Shown: piece after piece, positions 60 through 23,557 of the stretch | How the letters are laid out: each line of letters starts with the position of its first letter | How positions within the stretch are numbered: the first letter of the stretch is position 1 | Assembly: GCA_963775895.1 (NCBI GenBank) | Contig: CAVZKL010000011.1 | Span: forward strand, 1-64,000 | Direction of reading: 5' to 3' | Source: Candidatus Bathyarchaeota archaeon | Lineage (GTDB): Archaea; Thermoproteota; Bathyarchaeia; Bathyarchaeales; Bathycorpusculaceae | DNA length: 64,000 nucleotides | Made by a program: the position numbers and the translations under genes | Notes under the pieces: model-generated | The model's input: the letters and a program-made list of their open reading frames with translations, nothing else | What the model was told of the DNA's origin: nothing | Databases searched by the model: none

Positions 60-1023
60 GTGCCACCTCGTCTGCCAGAGTCGAAGCATTTTCAGATTGA
101 AAGATTGGCGGATGGTGTCTATGCCGCAGTTGCTTCTGAGCAGGGATATGCAAGCTGTAATGCTGGTATCATCGACATTGGTGATAGAACCATTATCTTC
201 GACACGTTCCTCACTCCCGAAGCAGCCAGAGACCTTTTGAAGACCGCTGAACAACTAACCTCAAATAAGATCACACATGTTGTCAACAGTCACGAGCACA
301 ATGACCATATTCGCGGCAACCAAATCTTTGACTCGAATGTTGACATAATCAGTACTGCATTGACTCGTGAAGCAATTGCCCGAAACGAGCCTGAAAATAT
401 CAAATCAGAGAAAGAGACGATTCTCAAGGAAATCATCGATGCGCAATCAAGACTTGATGCTGAGAAGGATGCTAAACGACGGCGGGAACTTGCTTTATTG
501 ATTTCTTACATGCAGGGTGTCAGCAAATCACATTCCGAATTGAAAACAAGACTTCCAAACATCACTTTTGAACATAAGCTCACAATACACGGAACAAAGA
601 GAACAATAGAGCTTCTACCACTTGCTGGCCACACGTTCAGTGACGTTGTTCTTTACCTACCGAAAGAGAGAATTGCGTTTATGGGCGATTTGCTTTTTGT
701 CAACATACATCCTTACCTCGCAAGTGGTTCTCCTGAGAAATGGAAACAATCACTCGCCGAGGTCGAAAGGATTAGGAGCCAAGATTGCCGTTCCTGGTCA
801 TGGTCCTGTGGGTCGATCGGCAGACCTTTCGGTATTGTCTCAATATATTGAGTCACTTGAAAGCATCGTAGTGAACATGATAAAGTCTGGCAAACCTGTG
901 GAGCAAGCATCTTCTGAACCAATCCCCTCGCCATTCGACACTTGGCTGTGTTTGGAAAACTTTTTCGTCACAAATCTCAAGTTCCTTTACAAACTCGCTA
1001 CGCAAGGAAAAGAGACAATATAG
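60..1023 (+). CDS. MBL-fold metallo-hydrolase (one frameshift near 770)
   Basis: NSHEHNDH metal motif and GHT/GD motifs in ORF 60-851; C-terminal VPGHG motif continues in ORF 622-1023. Confidence 0.85.
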
Positions 1024-2333: not shown

Positions 2334-2436
2334 TGATTAGCGCTTGGTAGTAAATGGAGATTGGTCTTTTAGTTGTAGGGAAAAATCTAATATAGAGATA
2401 ATTCTGATACGTATAAATAGACAAAGTGGAATCGCC

Positions 2437-3225
2437 TTGGCTTTTCCAACTTTGGATTCAGTTGCACGTAGTGTTATTTACCTCATAGTTGGCGTCGTTA
2501 TAGTTTATTTGTTGTCAAGAGCCTTGAAGCTTCGCCCGAAACCTATAACAATTGCGAAGCCGAGAAAAGAGGCTGCCGCCGCTTTGATTGTGAGCGTAGC
2601 CCTGCTTATTTTGGTGTTTGCGTGGCGAACGTTGACGAAAACATTCCAACTTCAGCCCCCAGAAAACACCGTTAGTATCACATTTGGTTTGTGGACCGCA
2701 TTCCTTTACGGTACGGGTTTTGCGGTCATAATCGTGGCTATGAAGATCACTCGACAAACTCTGGGAAGCATAGGCATAAGCAGAAAGGATACCGGAAAAA
2801 TGCTTTTTCTGGGGTTCGCATTAAGCGCAATATTGCTTGCCATTTATGGCTTGCTTACTACCTCTTTAGGAGGAGGTTTCGTAGGCTTTTCTCTTTTTTT
2901 GGCGTACGACCTAATTCTTGATATAATAGTGGGTTTCAGCGAGGAAACATTTTGGAGAGGCTACATTCAAACGAGGTTAATCGCTTATTGTGGCACAAAC
3001 AAAGGACTTGTAGTTACGTCGTTGCTTTTCGCTGTTCTTTGGCATTTTCCAATAGCCTATTACGTTGAAACATCGGGAGTTATGCTGGAGGCATTGGCAT
3101 GGACTCTATTGAGATTCCCAATTGGCTTGTTCCTCGGATACATTATGGTGAAAAGCCAAAACATAGTCCCATCCTCAATCGTCCATATCTTCATCAACTG
3201 GAACCTTGTTCTATGGCACCTTTAG
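2437..3225 (+). CDS. CPBP (CAAX/Abi) family intramembrane metalloprotease
   Basis: EETFWRG, FAVLWH and H..N motifs, multiple TM helices; likely TTG start at 2437; stop TAG is the start of the box TAGCGCGCGCG (3223-3233). Confidence 0.9.
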   Translation: MAFPTLDSVARSVIYLIVGVVIVYLLSRALKLRPKPITIAKPRKEAAAALIVSVALLILVFAWRTLTKTFQLQPPENTVSITFGLWTAFLYGTGFAVIIVAMKITRQTLGSIGISRKDTGKMLFLGFALSAILLAIYGLLTTSLGGGFVGFSLFLAYDLILDIIVGFSEETFWRGYIQTRLIAYCGTNKGLVVTSLLFAVLWHFPIAYYVETSGVMLEALAWTLLRFPIGLFLGYIMVKSQNIVPSSIVHIFINWNLVLWHL

Positions 3226-3269
3226 CGCGCGCGTTGGGAACATAATGAATATCTAGAGAGTATCGGTTT

Positions 3270-3319
3270 TTTGGCGTGTCGCCAGGAACGTGCGAGTGAG
3301 CCGAACGGCTCGCGAGCTA
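3270..3319 (+). repeat. ~50-bp dispersed hairpin repeat, copy 3
   Basis: tttggcgtgtcgccaggaacgtgcgagtgagccgaacggctcgcgagcta. Confidence 0.9.
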
Positions 3320-3534: not shown

Positions 3535-3797
3535 AGCCCCGATAATGTTAGCAGCTTTCTTCTGTTCTCTCGATGTACCTGTGTCCGTGTGCTGTAACGC
3601 CCATATTATTTCTTTTTTATTCAGTCACAGCACATCCTTGATTCAAATTTCCTTGTAAGTTTAATTTTCCAATCCTAAGTTAAGTTGAGAAGGTAGTTCC
3701 ATATAAATGATGATGCGTGGGCTTGGGGCAAAGTTCTGTCTCATGCATGAAGTCGGCGAGAAAGTGGTTTCTGAAGTGAGAAACAAAAAAAGAGGGG

Positions 3798-3863
3798 TTA
3801 TTTGCGTTTTTTGAAAAGTTGTACTCCTTCGATTGTTGTTTTGTATGTGAATCCGTGTTCTAG
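3798..3863 (-). pseudogene. Tyrosine recombinase C-terminal remnant
   Basis: Translates to LEHGFTYKTTIEGVQLFKKRK*, aligning with LIDNGWTYICTTPQNIMMFRKRK* of the integrase ending at 6769; same pyrimidine-rich trailer; cut at box TAGCACGCGCGCTA (3861-3874). Confidence 0.8.
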
Positions 3864-3916
3864 CACGCGCGCTATCTATTTCGAGGGCATACTAGGCACA
3901 AGACCGAGCTGTTGCA

Positions 3917-4318
3917 TCATGTTAGCATGTTATAATAATCAGTCTCTCGCCTGATCTTACCATTGTGAATTTCAATTATCGATGCGCCTTTAACCGAAAA
4001 GCGTTTTCCGGTCGCCGGTATCGCTGTCGCCGGTATCGCTGGATTGCTGCTATGGGCCTGAGTGCCCGTCATGATCCATTCCCAAGCTACCCAATTGCCA
4101 ATGTTAAACAGGGACTTCGATTCGAATCGCACATCAGGAACGTCAATAAGAGATGATTTGCAGAAGGCGACTAATTCCTTCTTGCCGTGGCAGACTACGC
4201 CCAGACCATTGTCCTCTAAAACACAATCATCTGTATAGAAGGAGATTATCTTATCCAAGTCGTGTGAATTCCATGCGGCAGCCCAATCTTTTATCACCTT
4301 TTCAATATCATTTGTCAT
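3917..4318 (-). CDS. SnoaL-like / NTF2-fold ester cyclase family protein
   Basis: AWNSHDLDKI..YTDD, WIMTGT and GKIRRETDYY pattern. Confidence 0.85.
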   Translation of the reverse strand: MTNDIEKVIKDWAAAWNSHDLDKIISFYTDDCVLEDNGLGVVCHGKKELVAFCKSSLIDVPDVRFESKSLFNIGNWVAWEWIMTGTQAHSSNPAIPATAIPATGKRFSVKGASIIEIHNGKIRRETDYYNMLT

Positions 4319-5368: not shown

Positions 5369-5501
5369 ATTACCGTAATGACTTTTTGAACCAGTTTTTG
5401 ATTTTGCGGAAAAGCGCGCGCGTGCGGATTTAAAATTTCTGTCTGGTTGTTAGTGCGTGCTGAAGCAATTGAGATGAGGACTTGAAAAGAAAAAAGGGGA
5501 G

Positions 5502-5534
5502 TTATTTGCATTTTCGGAATTGTTTTCCGCTGTC
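5502..5534 (-). pseudogene. Short, degenerate tyrosine recombinase C-terminal remnant
   Basis: DSGKQFRKCK*; DNA aaggggagttatttgcattttcggaa closely resembles agagggggttatttgcgttttcggaa at the integrase end. Confidence 0.55.
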
Positions 5535-5543
5535 TCAGCATCT

Positions 5544-6113
5544 CTATACTTTGATTATTTTCGAGGAAAATTTGACTGCTCTTAATGAATCTCTGGTCGG
5601 GGATAGATCTTCTGAGATCTTTGCGAGCTTCTCAAGTTGCTCCATGGTTGCGTCGCTCTTGATGTAATAGGTGGCTCGTAACTCTTGGTAGCCAGGTCTG
5701 ACCTTTCCAGGTTCTGGCAAGCCCATTGTGCCCTGCAGGTCTATGTCTCCTTCTATCTGTGTCACTAGCGAGTCTATCTTGATGCCCATCCCCGCGCCGT
5801 AGGATGCGAAGTTGTTGGTTATACAGTGGCTTAGCGCATCCAACAGTATCTCTGGTGGTAATGCGCCTTTATTCGTGCCCATCAGCTCTGGTGGATGATC
5901 GCTAGTAATTCCAAAAGGTTTGACTCTGCTATTCTTGTTGCCTCCCAACCAGAACTCGTCAATTGTTGACTCATTGTAAAAGGCGGTTTTCCACGTGGCT
6001 CTTGCCTGAAACTTGGCCCAAGCCGACTTCGGCTGCTTCATGACCGCTTCTCTCATTGCCTGAGCCTTTGACAAATCGACTCCGTTAATGGTTTTCGCTT
6101 TTTCGGTTTCCAT
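5544..6113 (-). CDS. OsmC family protein
   Basis: INGVD N-terminus, DHPPELMGTNKG..P.E.LL.ALSHC, EGDIDLQG..G, VRPGY; second Cys replaced (SPTRD). Confidence 0.85.
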   Translation of the reverse strand: METEKAKTINGVDLSKAQAMREAVMKQPKSAWAKFQARATWKTAFYNESTIDEFWLGGNKNSRVKPFGITSDHPPELMGTNKGALPPEILLDALSHCITNNFASYGAGMGIKIDSLVTQIEGDIDLQGTMGLPEPGKVRPGYQELRATYYIKSDATMEQLEKLAKISEDLSPTRDSLRAVKFSSKIIKV

Positions 6114-6219
6114 TGATGTGACCTCTTTGATTCTTCAGCTTGCGTTGGAGCTTATAGCATTTGTGACTTCGCCACTATCGTGCACTTTGAAAAGCTCAAG
6201 TCTATTTTGAGGATGTCAG

Positions 6220-6271
6220 TTTGGCGTAGTCGTCTGGAACGTGCGAGTGAGCCGAACGGCTCACGAGCTAT
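6220..6271 (+). repeat. ~50-bp dispersed hairpin repeat, copy 4
   Basis: tttggcgtagtcgtctggaacgtgcgagtgagccgaacggctcacgagctat; perfect GTGAGCCG-AA-CGGCTCAC hairpin. Confidence 0.9.
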
Positions 6272-6768: not shown

Positions 6769-7683
6769 TTATTTGCGTTTTCGGAACATCATTATGTTCT
6801 GTGGGGTTGTGCAGATGTATGTCCATCCGTTGTCTATTAGTTCGCCTGCTTCTTTTTCGTCTTTGGCTATTGCGTGGTGGTAGTTTTGGCTTTCTTCGTC
6901 AAATTGAACGATATGAGTATAGACCATTGTTGAGTTAATGTTTCGGTGTCCAAGTCTTGCTTGAACTTCGATCAAGCTCTTGGTTTCGTTGTAAAGGCGT
7001 GTAGCATGATAGTGTCGTAAGGTGTGGAAGTGTATTTGTCTTCAGTCGTGGGTTGTTCAGTTTCTCCGCGAGGCGTTTCTTTTGATAGTTGAACATGGTT
7101 GCGAGTGAAGCCTAGGCGTGTGTTGCTAAATATGTAGTGGTTTCGTTTTGGTAACGTGTTGAGTCGTGCAAGTAATTTAGCTGAGATTCTCACTTCTCTT
7201 GGTTTACATCCTTTTTCAGGGTTGTTGCATTTCAGCGTGCTTTTTTCTTCGTCTATATCTGTCCATTTGCATTGCCATAGTTCGCCTATTCTGAATCCTG
7301 TTTCTTTGAGTGCTTGCAGTGCAATGGAGAACTTTTTTGCTTGTTCCGCTTATGAGTGCGTCTATTTCTTTTTCTGTTGGCACGAATGGAAGCGTTTCAT
7401 TCTTGGGATAGAGTGGTGGATGTCCATTGGATATCCTTCATTTTGGCGTATTCGTTGTAGGTGAAAACGGCTAGGTTTTGTGTCCATTTGACCATTTGTT
7501 GTTTCTTTTTATGTAGAGTTTTACAGTTTCAGGGTCTGCTAGGTTTACGTTTTCTCTAATCATGTGTCGTAGAATCTTGTATTTTGTTTGGATGGTTGCG
7601 TCTGCGAAGGCTTGTTTTTCGCAATGTATCATGAACTCTGCGAGGTCTGTGTTTGTGATAACGTCAGAGCAGGCGGGTTCCAT
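6769..7683 (-). pseudogene. Tyrosine recombinase/integrase (XerC/D-like), multiply frameshifted
   Basis: Across frames: ETGFRIGEL (catalytic R), PEKG (K), HTLRH (HxxR), LGHRNINSTMVYTH (H and catalytic Y); ATG at 7683. Confidence 0.9.
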
Positions 7684-7689
7684 TGAAAA

Positions 7690-8004
7690 GCTGGCGTGTT
7701 GGTCGTAACCCGCCTTTTGTTTTTTGTGGCATTCGGCTAATCGGGCTACCCGCGCTTCCGGTAGATTCTTCATCAGCGTCTGTTTGCCCTTTCCACTTGC
7801 AGGACGGCCGTTTCACCGTTTCGCACCAGGCATCCTCAACAACTTAACATGCATCATCGTCCTCTGCCAGGTGGACGTTTCGTTTCTGCTCCGTTGCCAG
7901 GGTTCTCACCCTGCGCCCTTACGAACGCTGCAATTCTACGCGTGGGCGGAGTTTCCTCAAACCCTCAAATTCAGGGCTCGGAAGCCACACACCAACTCGC
8001 CAGC
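7690..8004 (-). ncRNA. rnpB: RNase P RNA (archaeal)
   Basis: Minus strand shows P1 GCUGGCGAGUUGGU/ACCAACACGCCAGC, CR-I GAGGAAACUCCGCCC, CR-II GCAGAAACG, CR-III GUGAAACGG, CR-IV UAGCCGAAUG, CR-V AACAAAAGGCGGGUUA; ~315 nt. Confidence 0.95.
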
Positions 8005-8135
8005 CAAACATCAATGCACAGGCGTCCGCAATAAGAATTTTGGAAACTTCACTTGACGAAGCAGTTTTGATGAGGAAAATCTGTCGATCCAGCATGGCGC
8101 ACGCTTGGTGGTGAAGTCTTATCCAACCGACCTGA

Positions 8136-8309
8136 CTATGGCTTTTTGGCGAACTTGAGAGCTGTGCCGACGATCATTACAACGATTCCCACGAACAGAA
8201 GTACCATTCCAGGATTATTGCCTTCGTGCAGCTGCAAGGGTGCGGCCAAGATAGCACCGCACAATGTTAAAATAGCCCCAAAAAAGAACAGGACATCATA
8301 CTTGTCCAT
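8136..8309 (-). CDS. 57-aa two-TM membrane protein (not in ORF track)
   Basis: MDKYDVLFFFGAILTLCGAILAAP...VGIVVMIVGTALKFAKKP*; GAAGGTG SD-like leader. Confidence 0.6.
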   Translation of the reverse strand: MDKYDVLFFFGAILTLCGAILAAPLQLHEGNNPGMVLLFVGIVVMIVGTALKFAKKP

Positions 8310-8504
8310 GAACGCACCTTCACTCTATGTGACCAAAGGCAGTTAAAAATGTACTGTGGCTGGTTGGGGGAAAATTTTTGTCCCAAACACACAAGAATAC
8401 GCCTACGACTGCATTCCCTTCCCCTAACTTCCCCCTTTCTTTCTCTTTCTTTCCCATTACTGGAAAAACAAGGCAGGCACGCAGACAGACAAACAGACAC
8501 CCAA

Positions 8505-8514
8505 CGCGCGCGCG
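8505..8514. repeat. (CG)5 junction box
   Basis: CGCGCGCGCG between a low-complexity remnant (8420-8500) and the next gene. Confidence 0.7.
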
Positions 8515-8554
8515 AAATCTTTGAACACGGCCAACAGGGGGTTTTCAGCCTTCC

Positions 8555-9565
8555 TTATTCTTTCAGTTGTGAAGCCCCACAGTAAGGGCACTCTTCAGAG
8601 GCAATGGGAATTTCTCTGCGGCATTTGATGCACTCTTTGAGAAAACCTTTCGTTTCCGGGGCGAGGGATCTGCTTATGCGACCAAGTATCGGACCTAATC
8701 GAGCTTCAATTTTCGGCTTCACGGATCTTGCAGGTATGTAAGAGAGAGCTGCGGCAAAGACCCCGCAAAAGAGAATTGCCGTGCCATCTTCAAGTTGGGA
8801 AGAAACTTCCACGTCGTCAATATGAACTCCAGGGTAGAATGGAATTGTGACGTTTAAATCTCCATAATCTCCACTTTCAAGCTCCACTTCGAGAACCAGA
8901 TCAACGGCATATCCTCTGTCAAGGCGGTCACGCAATTCTGGATCGTCAGCGCCCCAAAAAATTGTGAAAGTGGAGTGTCTAAAGCTGATGTAAGACTCTG
9001 TTCCATTTTGTACGGTTGTTCCTCCGTCTTGATCGTAGATGGAACGGTAGTATTTGCCATTAGGCCAAAACTCAAGAGAGAACCAGACGGTTAGGTTTGC
9101 GTATATGCTTTTGTCAGTTTCAACATGAACTCCGTAGAGTTCATAATCCACCCAGGATGCGCCAATCGGGTAATTTACGTCCAAAAGATGCTGTTCCCAG
9201 CGTCCTCTATACCCAGTCTTCCCAGAAGTTATCCCATCATAATTTAAATTGATTGTGGCATCTGCAGGCGTAAAATAGGAGTAGTGATGAGCTCCTCCTG
9301 CTGGAACACTCGCAATTGAAAAGGCAACTCCAACGATTATGACTATGGTTATTGCTATGAGACCATAGAATATGCGCCTAGACCTCTTTAATGCTCCCTC
9401 AACGTTTGAATAGAGCATGAGTAGCGTCGCGAGACCAATGAAAAAGAGGGAAGAATACATTGCTAACAGAAAGAGTGGGCTATCTTTAGAAGCCACGTGT
9501 ACCCAGATGAAGAGTAAAACCAACAGAGGCGAAAGAATAAGGGTCCAGCCTACGCTTATCCCCAT
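8555..9565 (-). CDS. Membrane protein with extracellular domain and C-terminal zinc ribbon
   Basis: N-terminal TM helices, C-terminal CIKC...CPYCG. Confidence 0.75.
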   Translation of the reverse strand: MGISVGWTLILSPLLVLLFIWVHVASKDSPLFLLAMYSSLFFIGLATLLMLYSNVEGALKRSRRIFYGLIAITIVIIVGVAFSIASVPAGGAHHYSYFTPADATINLNYDGITSGKTGYRGRWEQHLLDVNYPIGASWVDYELYGVHVETDKSIYANLTVWFSLEFWPNGKYYRSIYDQDGGTTVQNGTESYISFRHSTFTIFWGADDPELRDRLDRGYAVDLVLEVELESGDYGDLNVTIPFYPGVHIDDVEVSSQLEDGTAILFCGVFAAALSYIPARSVKPKIEARLGPILGRISRSLAPETKGFLKECIKCRREIPIASEECPYCGASQLKE

Positions 9566-9734
9566 GAGGGCAACCCGCTATTAAAGTAGACAGCAAGTAG
9601 GATAATACCTTTTCTTCACCTATGGGAGAGTCTTGAAAGTCGACAGCAGAGAAAGGATGTTTCGTGGGAGATATCTTGATCTGACGCTGAGTTTAAATCA
9701 GAAAGCACCAAATAACGTACGGACTGAAACCTCG

Positions 9735-21172: not shown

Positions 21173-23557
21173 ATGAAACTCGCTTTCTGGCTTCTGGACC
21201 TGAACTACGAATCCAACGACGAAGTTCCAGAAATCTGGATCTGGGGCGTAACCGAACAAGCAGAACGCGTGCTCATCATAGACCGTCACCCTCTTGCCTA
21301 TTTCTATGCAATCCTTGAAGACAACGGGGATCCTGCAAGAGTCATCGAAGAAATCAGCAATTGCCATCTGAAGTGTGTTTCGAAGCTTGAACTTGTCGAT
21401 CGCAAACTGTTTGGAAAACCCGTGAAAGCCGTGAAGGTTCATGTTAAGATGCCCGACGTCATGTCCGAGTACGCCAAGACACTTCGAAAGCTCGAAGGAG
21501 TAAAAGACTGTCTCGAAGAAGACATTCGATTCGCCATGCGCTACCTGGTAGACAACAACGTTATTCCGTCCGCGTGGCACGAAGTCGAAGTTACTGAAGA
21601 ATCGGACAAGAGAGGCGCACAGGTTGACAGAGTCTTTACCGCAGAGCGACCGCCCAGAGCCCTTGAAAAGGTCGAAGCCTCACCGTTGAGGATTCTGGGT
21701 TTTTCAACAATATACTACAGCCGTGAAGGTTCTCCCAAACCGGAAAGAAACCCCGTCGTCATCATTTCGACGGGAACCAATAGCGGCGAAGAGAAACAGT
21801 TCTTGGCGGGCGACGATCGAAACGACAAACCTGTTCTGGAAGCGTTCATAGAGTACGTTCGAAATTTCGACCCTGACATCATCGTGGGCTACGGCAACAA
21901 CGGACAAGATTGGCCCTACCTGCGCGAAAGATGCAAAAGACACGGAATACGACTTCACGTCGACAGAACAGAAACCGAGCCTCACACAAGCGTGTACGGA
22001 CACGTTTCACTTGCGGGCAGAGCAAACCTAGATTTATCAGACTACGGCGGAGAGTTTCCAGAGGTCAAGGTCAAGACCCTGGCCAACCTTGCAGAATACT
22101 TGGGTGTGATGAAACTCGAGAACCGCAAGATCATAGAGGACATCGATCTACCGGATCATTGGGACAACAAAGAAAAACGCGAGGCTCTAAAACAATTTTC
22201 AAAAGATAACACCCAGTGCGTAATGGGAGTGACAGAAGCAATCCTGGACTTCGCAATACAGCTCTCAAGCTTGGTAAGCCTACCGCTGGATCATGTTGGA
22301 ACCGCGGCCGCAGGTTTTCGTGTTGAATCTTTTCTAATAAAGAGAACACACCCGCTCGGTGAACTCGTGCCAAGAAGAATTGAACAGCCCTACAGGCCTT
22401 ACGCCGGCGGGCTCGTGCTGCAGCCAACACCAGGGCTTCATGAAAACATCGCGGTCTTGGACTTCAAGTCGATGTACCCCAACATCATGATAACCTACAA
22501 CCTTTCGCCAGACACCTACGTATCCCCGCAAGACCCAGTGCCTCCTGGAGGAGTGTACGAGGCTCCCGAAGTCAAACACAGGTTCAGGAAAGAACCTCCA
22601 GGCTTCTACAAAGAAGTCTTATCCTACTTGATCCAAGTGCGAGACCAGATTCGCCCGAAAATGAGCAAACTGAAACCAGGCACAGCTGAGTACCGAGTGT
22701 TGGACGCCCGTCAAAAAGCCGTCAAGATCATAACCAACGCTTCGTACGGGTATGCCGGTTGGATAGGAGCCAGGTGGTACGTCAAACCCGTTGCCGAGGC
22801 AGCCGCTGCTTGGGGAAGACACACAATTCTCACGGCAATAGACATGGCGAAAGAGGAGAAGTTGAAAGTGGTCTACGGCGACACGGACAGCATATTCATC
22901 GAAAATCAACCTCAGAAGATAAATCACCTTTCGAAAGAAATCAGGGAAAAGATGGGGCTAGAAGTTAAGCCAGACGAGATCTACACACGCATCTTCTTCA
23001 CTGAAGCCAAAAAACGTTACGCCGGCCTCATGTCCAACGGAGAACTGGACATCGTCGGCATGGAAGTCGTTCGCGGAGACTGGGCCACAATAGCCAAAAA
23101 AGTGCAAGAAAAGGTCTTGGAGATAATACTGAAGGAAAAGTCGCCGAAAAAAGCCGTGGATTTCGTCCACCAGTTCATCTACGAGGTCAGGCAGAAACAG
23201 GTTCCGTATCGAGACCTAATCATATGGAAAACTCTGACCAAACCCGCCGAGGAATATGAAGTCAAAGCCTCCCACGTTGAAGCTGCGAAGATGTTGCGGG
23301 CAAAGGGTTGGCAACTTGCTGTCGGCGACAAAATAGGCTTCGTCGTCGTTATCGGCGAAGGGCGCCTCTATGAAAGAGTCAAACCGTACATGCTTGCCTC
23401 GTACGATGAAGTGGACCTGGAGTACTACGTGGAAAAACAAGTTGTGCCAGCTGCAGCAAGGATCCTCGAAAGCTTCGGCGTGACAGAAGACCAATTGTTA
23501 CAGTCCAAGAACGGACAGAAAGAAACGAGGAAACTCACAGACTTCTTCGGCGCCTAA
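21173..23557 (+). CDS. polB: Family B DNA polymerase (PolB3-like)
   Basis: DFKSMYPNI, KIITNASYG, YGDTDS, KKRY, C-terminal PIP-like KLTDFF. Confidence 0.96.
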   Translation: MKLAFWLLDLNYESNDEVPEIWIWGVTEQAERVLIIDRHPLAYFYAILEDNGDPARVIEEISNCHLKCVSKLELVDRKLFGKPVKAVKVHVKMPDVMSEYAKTLRKLEGVKDCLEEDIRFAMRYLVDNNVIPSAWHEVEVTEESDKRGAQVDRVFTAERPPRALEKVEASPLRILGFSTIYYSREGSPKPERNPVVIISTGTNSGEEKQFLAGDDRNDKPVLEAFIEYVRNFDPDIIVGYGNNGQDWPYLRERCKRHGIRLHVDRTETEPHTSVYGHVSLAGRANLDLSDYGGEFPEVKVKTLANLAEYLGVMKLENRKIIEDIDLPDHWDNKEKREALKQFSKDNTQCVMGVTEAILDFAIQLSSLVSLPLDHVGTAAAGFRVESFLIKRTHPLGELVPRRIEQPYRPYAGGLVLQPTPGLHENIAVLDFKSMYPNIMITYNLSPDTYVSPQDPVPPGGVYEAPEVKHRFRKEPPGFYKEVLSYLIQVRDQIRPKMSKLKPGTAEYRVLDARQKAVKIITNASYGYAGWIGARWYVKPVAEAAAAWGRHTILTAIDMAKEEKLKVVYGDTDSIFIENQPQKINHLSKEIREKMGLEVKPDEIYTRIFFTEAKKRYAGLMSNGELDIVGMEVVRGDWATIAKKVQEKVLEIILKEKSPKKAVDFVHQFIYEVRQKQVPYRDLIIWKTLTKPAEEYEVKASHVEAAKMLRAKGWQLAVGDKIGFVVVIGEGRLYERVKPYMLASYDEVDLEYYVEKQVVPAAARILESFGVTEDQLLQSKNGQKETRKLTDFFGA

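Follow-up and report, generated by a model that had tools for sequence, protein, structure and literature searches.

The window analysed here, 64,000 nucleotides (nt) long, forms the start of contig C11 (CAVZKL010000011.1) in the metagenome-assembled genome of a Candidatus Bathyarchaeota archaeon (G000; 88.8% complete, 28 contigs, 1.77 Mb). It carries the RNase P RNA gene rnpB and, directly downstream, a broken tyrosine integrase gene. We conclude with considerable confidence that the region downstream of rnpB is what remains, decayed and no longer mobile, of two or more site-specific integrations into the 3′ end of this gene. Genomes, contigs and loci are designated below by our own labels (G, C and L, respectively). 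The window features on which the argument turns are the following.

7694–8000, minus strand: rnpB, an intact RNase P RNA gene
7690–7712, minus strand: 23-nt attachment sequence (att) CGGGTTACGACCAACACGCCAGC, comprising the 19 nt at the 3′ end of rnpB (Rfam boundaries) and then CAGC; the left-hand site (attL) here, matching the repeats in relatives
7672–7679, minus strand: motif AACCCGCC; the left edge of att bears its reverse complement, GGCGGGTT (junction listings)
6769–7683, minus strand: tyrosine integrase pseudogene of clade A (three-frame translation, PF00589, alignment to an intact orthologue)
3801–3884, minus strand: C-terminal stub of a second integrase, of clade-B type, approximately 28 codons with one in-frame stop (tblastn against the first integrase of G001, 61% over 28 aa, E 4e-7; repeat family D3)

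rnpB and the Attachment Sequence

The identity of rnpB, for which the initial annotation had recommended an Rfam check, was confirmed by a match to RNaseP_arch (RF00373) over the full model (positions 1–288) with 197.3 bits against a gathering score of 84 (E 3.2e-57). The end of the gene had been placed at 7690. The Rfam-defined end lies at 7694 on the minus strand, and the four extra bases, CAGC, are part of the sequence that is repeated in relatives. Positions 8–19 of att correspond to the 3′ strand of the rnpB terminal helix in the Rfam structure line. Of the 30 rnpB loci examined, among them that of the window, 29 contained the att sequence with no more than four mismatches.

The integrase start was correctly located at an ATG at 7683, on the same strand as rnpB and in a frame with similarity to integrase N-termini. 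It lies six nt after att and ten bases past the Rfam end of rnpB. The frame noted as open back into rnpB (ORF 7471–7773, minus strand) was also recovered. There is no promoter-sized spacer between att and this ATG, and transcription of an integrated integrase gene would therefore have to come by read-through or begin inside rnpB or att. A TTTT tract follows att at the window junction and at 5 of 13 further rnpB–integrase junctions listed, which is too sparse to bear on read-through. The motif AACCCGCC was kept approximately 10 nt after att in the elements of clade A at the nucleotide level, in coding and non-coding contexts, and is a putative recombinase-binding half-site.

The window extends only 7.7 kb beyond the rnpB 3′ end. 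It had been stated that no duplicated rnpB end is visible there, and this held for the whole assembly: neither the window nor the 28 contigs contained a second copy when searched with a 24-mer (up to six mismatches), a 17-mer (up to two), a 15-mer (up to one) and blastn-short, and the 23-nt att was single-copy. A motif search of the window and the assembly for the arm TTACTAAGG, which is conserved in elements of relatives, was equally negative. The window has the integrase adjoining the target-proximal att (ATG at 7683, att at 7690–7712), as in an integrated island, and the displaced 3′ fragment forming a direct repeat was seen in relatives and not in the window or its assembly. ARAGORN found no tRNA gene in the 64-kb window.

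The Integrase Gene of the Window Is a Pseudogene

The presence of a recombinase gene at rnpB had been recognised from the start, and its broken frame had been overlooked. The reference used to describe the damage was P0001 (L037:14454–15362), an intact orthologue of 303 aa from a congeneric genome, to which the window gene is 91.2% identical over 911 aligned nt. Relative to P0001, the window gene carries five 1-nt indels, a deletion near 7478 and insertions at approximately 7420, 7331, 7100 and 7040. In three-frame translation the integrase segments lay successively in frames 0, 2, 0, 1, 2 and 0 down to the stop at 6769–6771, requiring five frame changes, and six stops were counted inside the integrase match in a whole-genome scan. 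The PF00589 domain was split into two pieces, 6975–7349 (32.1 bits) and 6772–7041 (46.5 bits), each above the cut-off of 27.1, compared to 86.4 bits for P0001. The motifs FRIGEL, HTLRHYHAT and GHRNINSTMVYTH, whose catalytic roles are assigned by the alignment to XerA, are still encoded in the window. They are spread over different frames, and are continuous in P0001. The catalytic residues (Arg, Lys, His-x-x-Arg, His/Trp and Tyr) therefore do not occur in one continuous protein.

This damage is local. Over 400 windows of 8 kb across the genome, frames without a stop and no shorter than 120 aa covered a median share of 0.89, compared to 0.56 for C11:1–8000, the second lowest value. The frameshifts therefore reflect local decay and not a general assembly error. 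We regard the integrase gene of the window as dead and this copy of the element as a remnant.

Direct Repeats of the rnpB End Delimit Elements in Relatives

Among 40 related genomes, rnpB was detected in 32 and its locus was examined in 29, giving 30 loci with that of the window. An integrase gene lay immediately 3′ of rnpB in 6 of the 29 loci of relatives (tblastn with the integrase paralogues of the window's genome), or 7 of 30 with the window. The six comprise all five same-genus genomes with a detected rnpB (G001, G002, G005, G008 and G009) and G030, which belongs to another family. Since the same arrangement recurs in relatives, the adjacency of rnpB and integrase in the window is not due to chance. 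In five of the six (all except G008), att was found again downstream of rnpB as a direct repeat with 0–4 mismatches, at the following distances.

G030: +4.9 kb
G001: +6.1 and +15.3 kb
G002: +7.6 kb
G005: +10.0 and +20.3 kb
G009: +10.3 kb (3 mismatches)
G008: +35 kb (4 mismatches), doubtful
Further Bathyarchaeia records with bounded elements: L044, 8.7 kb; L045, 9.0 kb; L052, 5.7 kb; L118, 5.05 kb

The repeats often formed tandem arrays, with elements spanning 4.9–10.4 kb. In G005, the sequence past the second att corresponds to the window sequence past rnpB, the ATG included, which makes the window element orthologous to the second element of the tandem array in G005. The element-side arm, TTACTAAGG followed by 5 nt and then GA, stood directly before the distal att in most elements. 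A scan for this arm joined to the start of att returned 111 metagenome stretches. Among the 80 that were fetched, 11 had rnpB, an integrase and a distal arm with att on one contig, and 15 had another integrase after att.

These observations strongly support the proposal, made in the initial annotation, that the 3′ end of rnpB is the chromosomal attachment site (attB) of this element family: direct repeats of it bound the elements in relatives, and the closest integrases sit at rnpB. The survey of rnpB flanks that had been suggested there gave the distribution described above.

Several of the rnpB-linked integrases of relatives are also damaged, with an in-frame stop in G002, a frameshift in G009 and many breaks in L052 and L084. 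The integrase of G008 (L035:4740–5627, the same as L046) is full-length and has a His in place of the catalytic Tyr, with no clear distal att within 35 kb; this integrase may have been domesticated or inactivated.

The Integrase Family and Its Choice of Target

Six rnpB-linked integrases were aligned as the query for a scan that covered a single genome from each species and yielded 79 loci, nearly all titled Bathyarchaeia. According to the rnpB profile, rnpB adjoins the integrase in 13 of them. L043, the tandem member of G005, has an att copy directly upstream. All 12 loci at least 55% identical to P0001 sit at rnpB, contrary to the alternative that the closest homologues would be found only at tRNA genes. 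The remaining loci showed 33–48% identity to P0001. In 41 of these the integrase is followed within 400 nt by a tRNA gene (30 convergent and 11 on the same strand), and in the others a tRNA gene lies upstream (3), the contig edge intervenes (2) or no RNA gene was found by ARAGORN (20).

A quick maximum-likelihood tree was built from 77 rows, consisting of 69 of the 79 loci, four integrases of relatives and four paralogues of the window's genome; ten loci with a stop-free stretch shorter than 230 aa were dropped, and the window pseudogene was excluded. The 11 rows of clade A were all rnpB-linked (SH-aLRT 100), and clade B comprised four rows (SH-aLRT 99). The clades are 28–34% identical to one another. 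The window gene is placed in clade A because it is 91% identical to L043. Even when only the starred branches are trusted, which separate clades A and B, the tree requires a minimum of two changes in the rnpB label. The rnpB target appears to have been taken up more than once within a family of tRNA-targeting integrases. L053, an early-branching member of clade A, shows a convergent, tRNA-like layout at rnpB.

The best match of the family profile in structural databases was archaeal XerA (PDB 4a8e and 5hxy), full-length over both domains (E 4.9e-22). The scores stayed far below the cut-offs of more specific models: for the XerA equivalog NF040815, P0001 reached 100 bits and a clade-B member 74.5 against a cut-off of 220, and for the integron integrase TIGR02249 the score was 69.4 bits against 265. 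A scan of IMG/VR with the integrase alignment gave no close relative (at most 31% identity over the full catalytic domain, and 35–42% for a few shorter segments) and no free viral or plasmid form.

Four paralogues in the window's genome (C18:103696–104727, minus; C23:15671–16774, plus; C7:4291–5142, plus; C22:61629–62648, minus) have stop-free frames that begin antisense through tRNA-like sequence. In C18 this is a complete tRNA-Arg at 104655–104727 on the opposite strand (ARAGORN). These four may truly be of the SSV-like type, in which att lies inside the open reading frame.

A Model for Integration at rnpB and Its Alternatives

The rnpB-proximal pseudogene and the clade-B integrase stub coexist in the window with accessory genes and repeats; for this reason the locus is read as a record of at least two integrations, followed by decay through deletion and frameshift. 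We propose a model in which elements of approximately 5–10 kb encode a XerA-like tyrosine integrase and hold a copy of the 23-nt rnpB end in their own attachment site (attP). Recombination of attP with attB within the 23-nt identity would insert the element directly downstream of rnpB. The rnpB 3′ end would be made whole again by the copy that the element brings, with the displaced copy left at the far end. Lying directly after att and in the same direction as rnpB, the integrase gene would stay whole on integration. Repeated insertion would lead to tandem arrays and then to decay. In the window, the distal att would have been lost or would lie beyond the contig start, 7.7 kb away. The order rnpB–att–integrase, the direct repeats and tandem arrays, the correlation of integrase clade with target and the pseudogene state in the window are observed. 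The recombination reaction and the regeneration of rnpB are patterned on the established behaviour of tyrosine integrases at tRNA and tmRNA genes, and the position of strand exchange and the mode of integrase expression are likewise parts of the model. The attL and attR sequences differ on both sides of the repeat, and no localisation of the strand-exchange point is possible from them.

Several points weigh against this model. The window has neither a second att nor the conserved arm, so that integration at its own locus is read from the relatives. The recombination is inferred from sequence. Terminal repeats indicative of circular contigs were present in 0 of the 80 metagenome loci, and no circular or excised form was seen. 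The five indels are those of the assembled sequence. Finally, AAG takes the place of the window's ATG in L044 and L045, and some clade-B genes encode conserved residues before the first ATG; the exact integrase starts are uncertain for both reasons. In the sequencing runs, the best share of window words was 0.25. Runs X1, X2, X3 and X15 gave contigs of relatives only, and the RNA run covered rnpB only.

The initial annotation had raised the possibility that the integrase is split at att in the manner of the "suicidal" SSV-type enzymes, with attP inside the integrase open reading frame, the C-terminal part after rnpB and the N-terminal part at the far end of the element. In the window and most relatives the frame indeed continues without a stop through att into rnpB, the circle junctions reconstructed in silico for the first elements of G001 and G005 leave the integrase frame open for approximately 190–245 nt upstream of att, and the clade-B residues before the first ATG agree with such a layout. 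Against this, the open frame crosses att in two different registers among homologues with approximately 75% DNA identity, and long open frames are expected by chance on this T-poor strand. Three of seven circle junctions are closed, that of G030 at the att start, that of G002 10 nt before att and that of the second element of G001 after att. The canonical starts lie 6–69 nt after att, and the family profile aligns to XerA (4a8e) from XerA residue 11 onward, so that no N-terminal part is missing. The SSV-type split was rejected on the two registers, the closed junctions, the starts and the complete N-terminal domain, and we hold it to be highly improbable. It could also be argued that the integrase of the window is intact and active and that its five frame breaks are assembly errors. 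The genome is an incomplete assembly from a metagenome, in 28 contigs, and the extra base at approximately 7330 is absent from the contigs of relatives. Against such errors stand the frames, which are intact elsewhere in the genome and second lowest here among the 400 windows, the neighbouring core genes, unbroken over 309–315 aa against relatives, the position of the indels outside long homopolymers, and the damage in other rnpB-linked integrases (G002, G009, L052, L084 and G008). An intact gene is accordingly very unlikely.

A different type of system was also considered, an integron-like platform in which a resident recombinase at rnpB captures promoterless cassettes, with the D1 repeats described below or CG tracts as recombination sites. 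Repeats and (CG)n tracts do divide the region into short units of unrelated genes, the distal arms are nearly identical among elements whose integrases belong to different clades, and the integron-integrase model was among the weak NCBIfam matches. This match amounts to only 69 bits against a cut-off of 265, and the units in relatives are bounded by rnpB-derived att sequences and have each an integrase of their own. Read by eye, D1 lacks a consistent core of the GTTRRRY type, and GCGCGCGC, another repeat of the region, is found genome-wide in 254 copies. Such a platform has, in our opinion, hardly any likelihood.

The model of site-specific integration at rnpB can be extended in a more speculative way, which we offer tentatively and think less likely than its negation. 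Two integrase clades would have converged on rnpB, which would be a lineage-wide hotspot for accessory and defence genes, and the arrangement of attP would act as a state-dependent switch of integrase expression. In the circle, attP would be flanked on one side by the integrase start and on the other, at 7 nt from att, by the AT-rich arm TTACTAAGG. The arm, approximately 30–45 nt upstream of that start, is a putative promoter, by speculation. Integration would cut the integrase from the arm promoter and park it behind the strongly transcribed rnpB, and in tandem arrays each arm would face the integrase of the next element.

Other Remnants, Repeats and Genes around rnpB

Besides the features already given, the window contains the following.

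5491–5519, minus strand: possible third integrase 3′-end remnant, 29 nt, weak (83% identical to the D3 reference copy at 3787–3815; blastn-short E 0.12)
1373–1421, 2284–2332, 3268–3316 and 6219–6267 (the last copy on the plus strand): 49-nt repeat D1, four copies (repeat listing)
60–1023, plus strand: metallo-beta-lactamase-fold gene (Pfam), apparently frameshifted near 780, as ORFs 60–851 and 622–1023 overlap in different frames
2344–3225, plus strand: CPBP/Rce1-like protease gene (Pfam)
3917–4318, minus strand: SnoaL-like gene (Pfam)
5544–6113, minus strand: OsmC-like gene (Pfam)

The core of D1 is an inverted GAGCCG..CGGCTC. Elsewhere in the same genome D1 occurs only at C23:17615–17659 and 23260–23302, 0.8–1.3 kb downstream of two other integrases, and copies are also present within the rnpB arrays of relatives. 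A segment of approximately 0.5 kb (1370–1936) was 91–98% identical across many rnpB arrays of same-genus genomes and metagenome contigs, and was thus better conserved than the integrases. It contains two ORFs rich in Lys, Arg and Glu (30 and 42 codons) and has the D1 repeat and a CG tract at its borders. Rfam gave no match at E up to 1 for positions 1300–2000. The short repeat GCGCGCGC had its 254 copies in a genome of 1.77 Mb where approximately 18 were estimated by chance, often between genes and at contig ends. Its copies in the window start at 4, 1929, 2130, 3225, 4398, 4487 and 5414, with all seven in the first 5.5 kb.

Accessory DNA had been described on both sides of rnpB. This is the case downstream; upstream, only approximately 1.6 kb is variable and is followed by core genes syntenic across the genus (AAA_18 kinase-like and TtuA/NcsA-like), with the unbroken alignments over 309–315 aa mentioned above. 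The variable part (8001–9633) is a 1.4–1.6-kb insert between rnpB and the core genes, present in the window's genome, G002 and G008 and not in G001, G005 and G009. A protein of 336 aa is encoded there, with a zinc-ribbon-like motif in its C-terminal part.

The cargo of intact elements in relatives is accessory or defence-like: GNAT, RelA_SpoT, HEPN, nSTAND3 (a STAND NTPase), AAA_15/21, MFS, and DUF5343 with HEPN_Swt1. Among 19 cargo ORFs compared to Pfam, no replication or virion gene was recognised, and about half had no Pfam match. The 4.9-kb element of G030 carries a full paralogue of the TATA-binding protein (L033:14855–15409, minus strand; PF00352, 205 bits) beside an AAA_15/21 ATPase. 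In G001, a Cas1 fragment (L032:546–1160, plus strand; profile positions 141–279 of 283) lies 76 nt after the third and last att copy.

Significance and Comparison with Known Systems

For the window itself the message is modest, this copy being a dead remnant. For the lineage, the rule that islands land in the ends of stable-RNA genes would be extended to a new RNA, rnpB, a target shared across several Bathyarchaeia genera and by two integrase clades approximately 30% identical. The rnpB-end repeat provides a simple marker to delimit islands in an uncultured and abundant sediment lineage, and the short, defined att sites and their integrases are candidate tools for genetic work on Bathyarchaeia.

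The archaeal integration targets listed in the available text of two sources are tRNA genes, protein-coding genes and intergenic sites (PMC8371274, PMC6563490). RNase P and rnpB are unmentioned in the main text of these two sources, the first being a 2021 review of archaeal tyrosine recombinases, and a term search of the available text of a paper on Bathyarchaeia viruses (PMC10541130) was also negative. The full-text literature that was searched contains no account of integration at rnpB; an earlier mention, for instance in subscription journals or supplementary tables, is possible.

The closest likeness in anatomy is to the tDNA and tmRNA islands of the Islander type, as far as these are described in the accessible part of PMC4383910: the target is the 3′ end of a stable-RNA gene, the gene is regenerated, a distal repeat is left, the integrase stands at the target-proximal end and tandem arrays occur. 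The elements described here differ in that the target is rnpB and that the integrase is mostly co-directional with it, starting 6–69 nt after att, whereas in the tRNA-linked relatives of the same integrase family the RNA gene lies just past the integrase 3′ end (30 convergent, 11 on the same strand). The pNOB8-type integrases of archaea, in the available text of PMC8371274, likewise have att outside the integrase open reading frame and a gene that is not partitioned on integration. The Bathyarchaeia host and the rnpB target differ, and the att identity of 23 nt is shorter than the 40–50 bp att of the Sulfolobales pNOB8-type sites given there. With the SSV-type integrases (PMC7253208 and PMC8371274, accessible parts) they share an archaeal tyrosine integrase, an att near the 5′ end of its gene and a frame that is often open, whereas the defining attP inside the open reading frame, with a split gene, was not found here.

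The likeness to archaeal XerA consists in the full-length match and in catalytic motifs of the RHR-H-Y type. In contrast to XerA, the rnpB integrases exist in multiple copies, on elements and together with att repeats, and for these reasons they are not chromosome-dimer resolvases. The cryptic integrated elements of Thaumarchaeota, as presented in the available text of PMC6563490, resemble the rnpB elements in being small integrase islands with tandem integration and no recognisable replication or virion genes. Their targets are tRNA genes, protein-coding genes and intergenic sites, whereas the elements of Bathyarchaeia described here sit at the 3′ end of rnpB.

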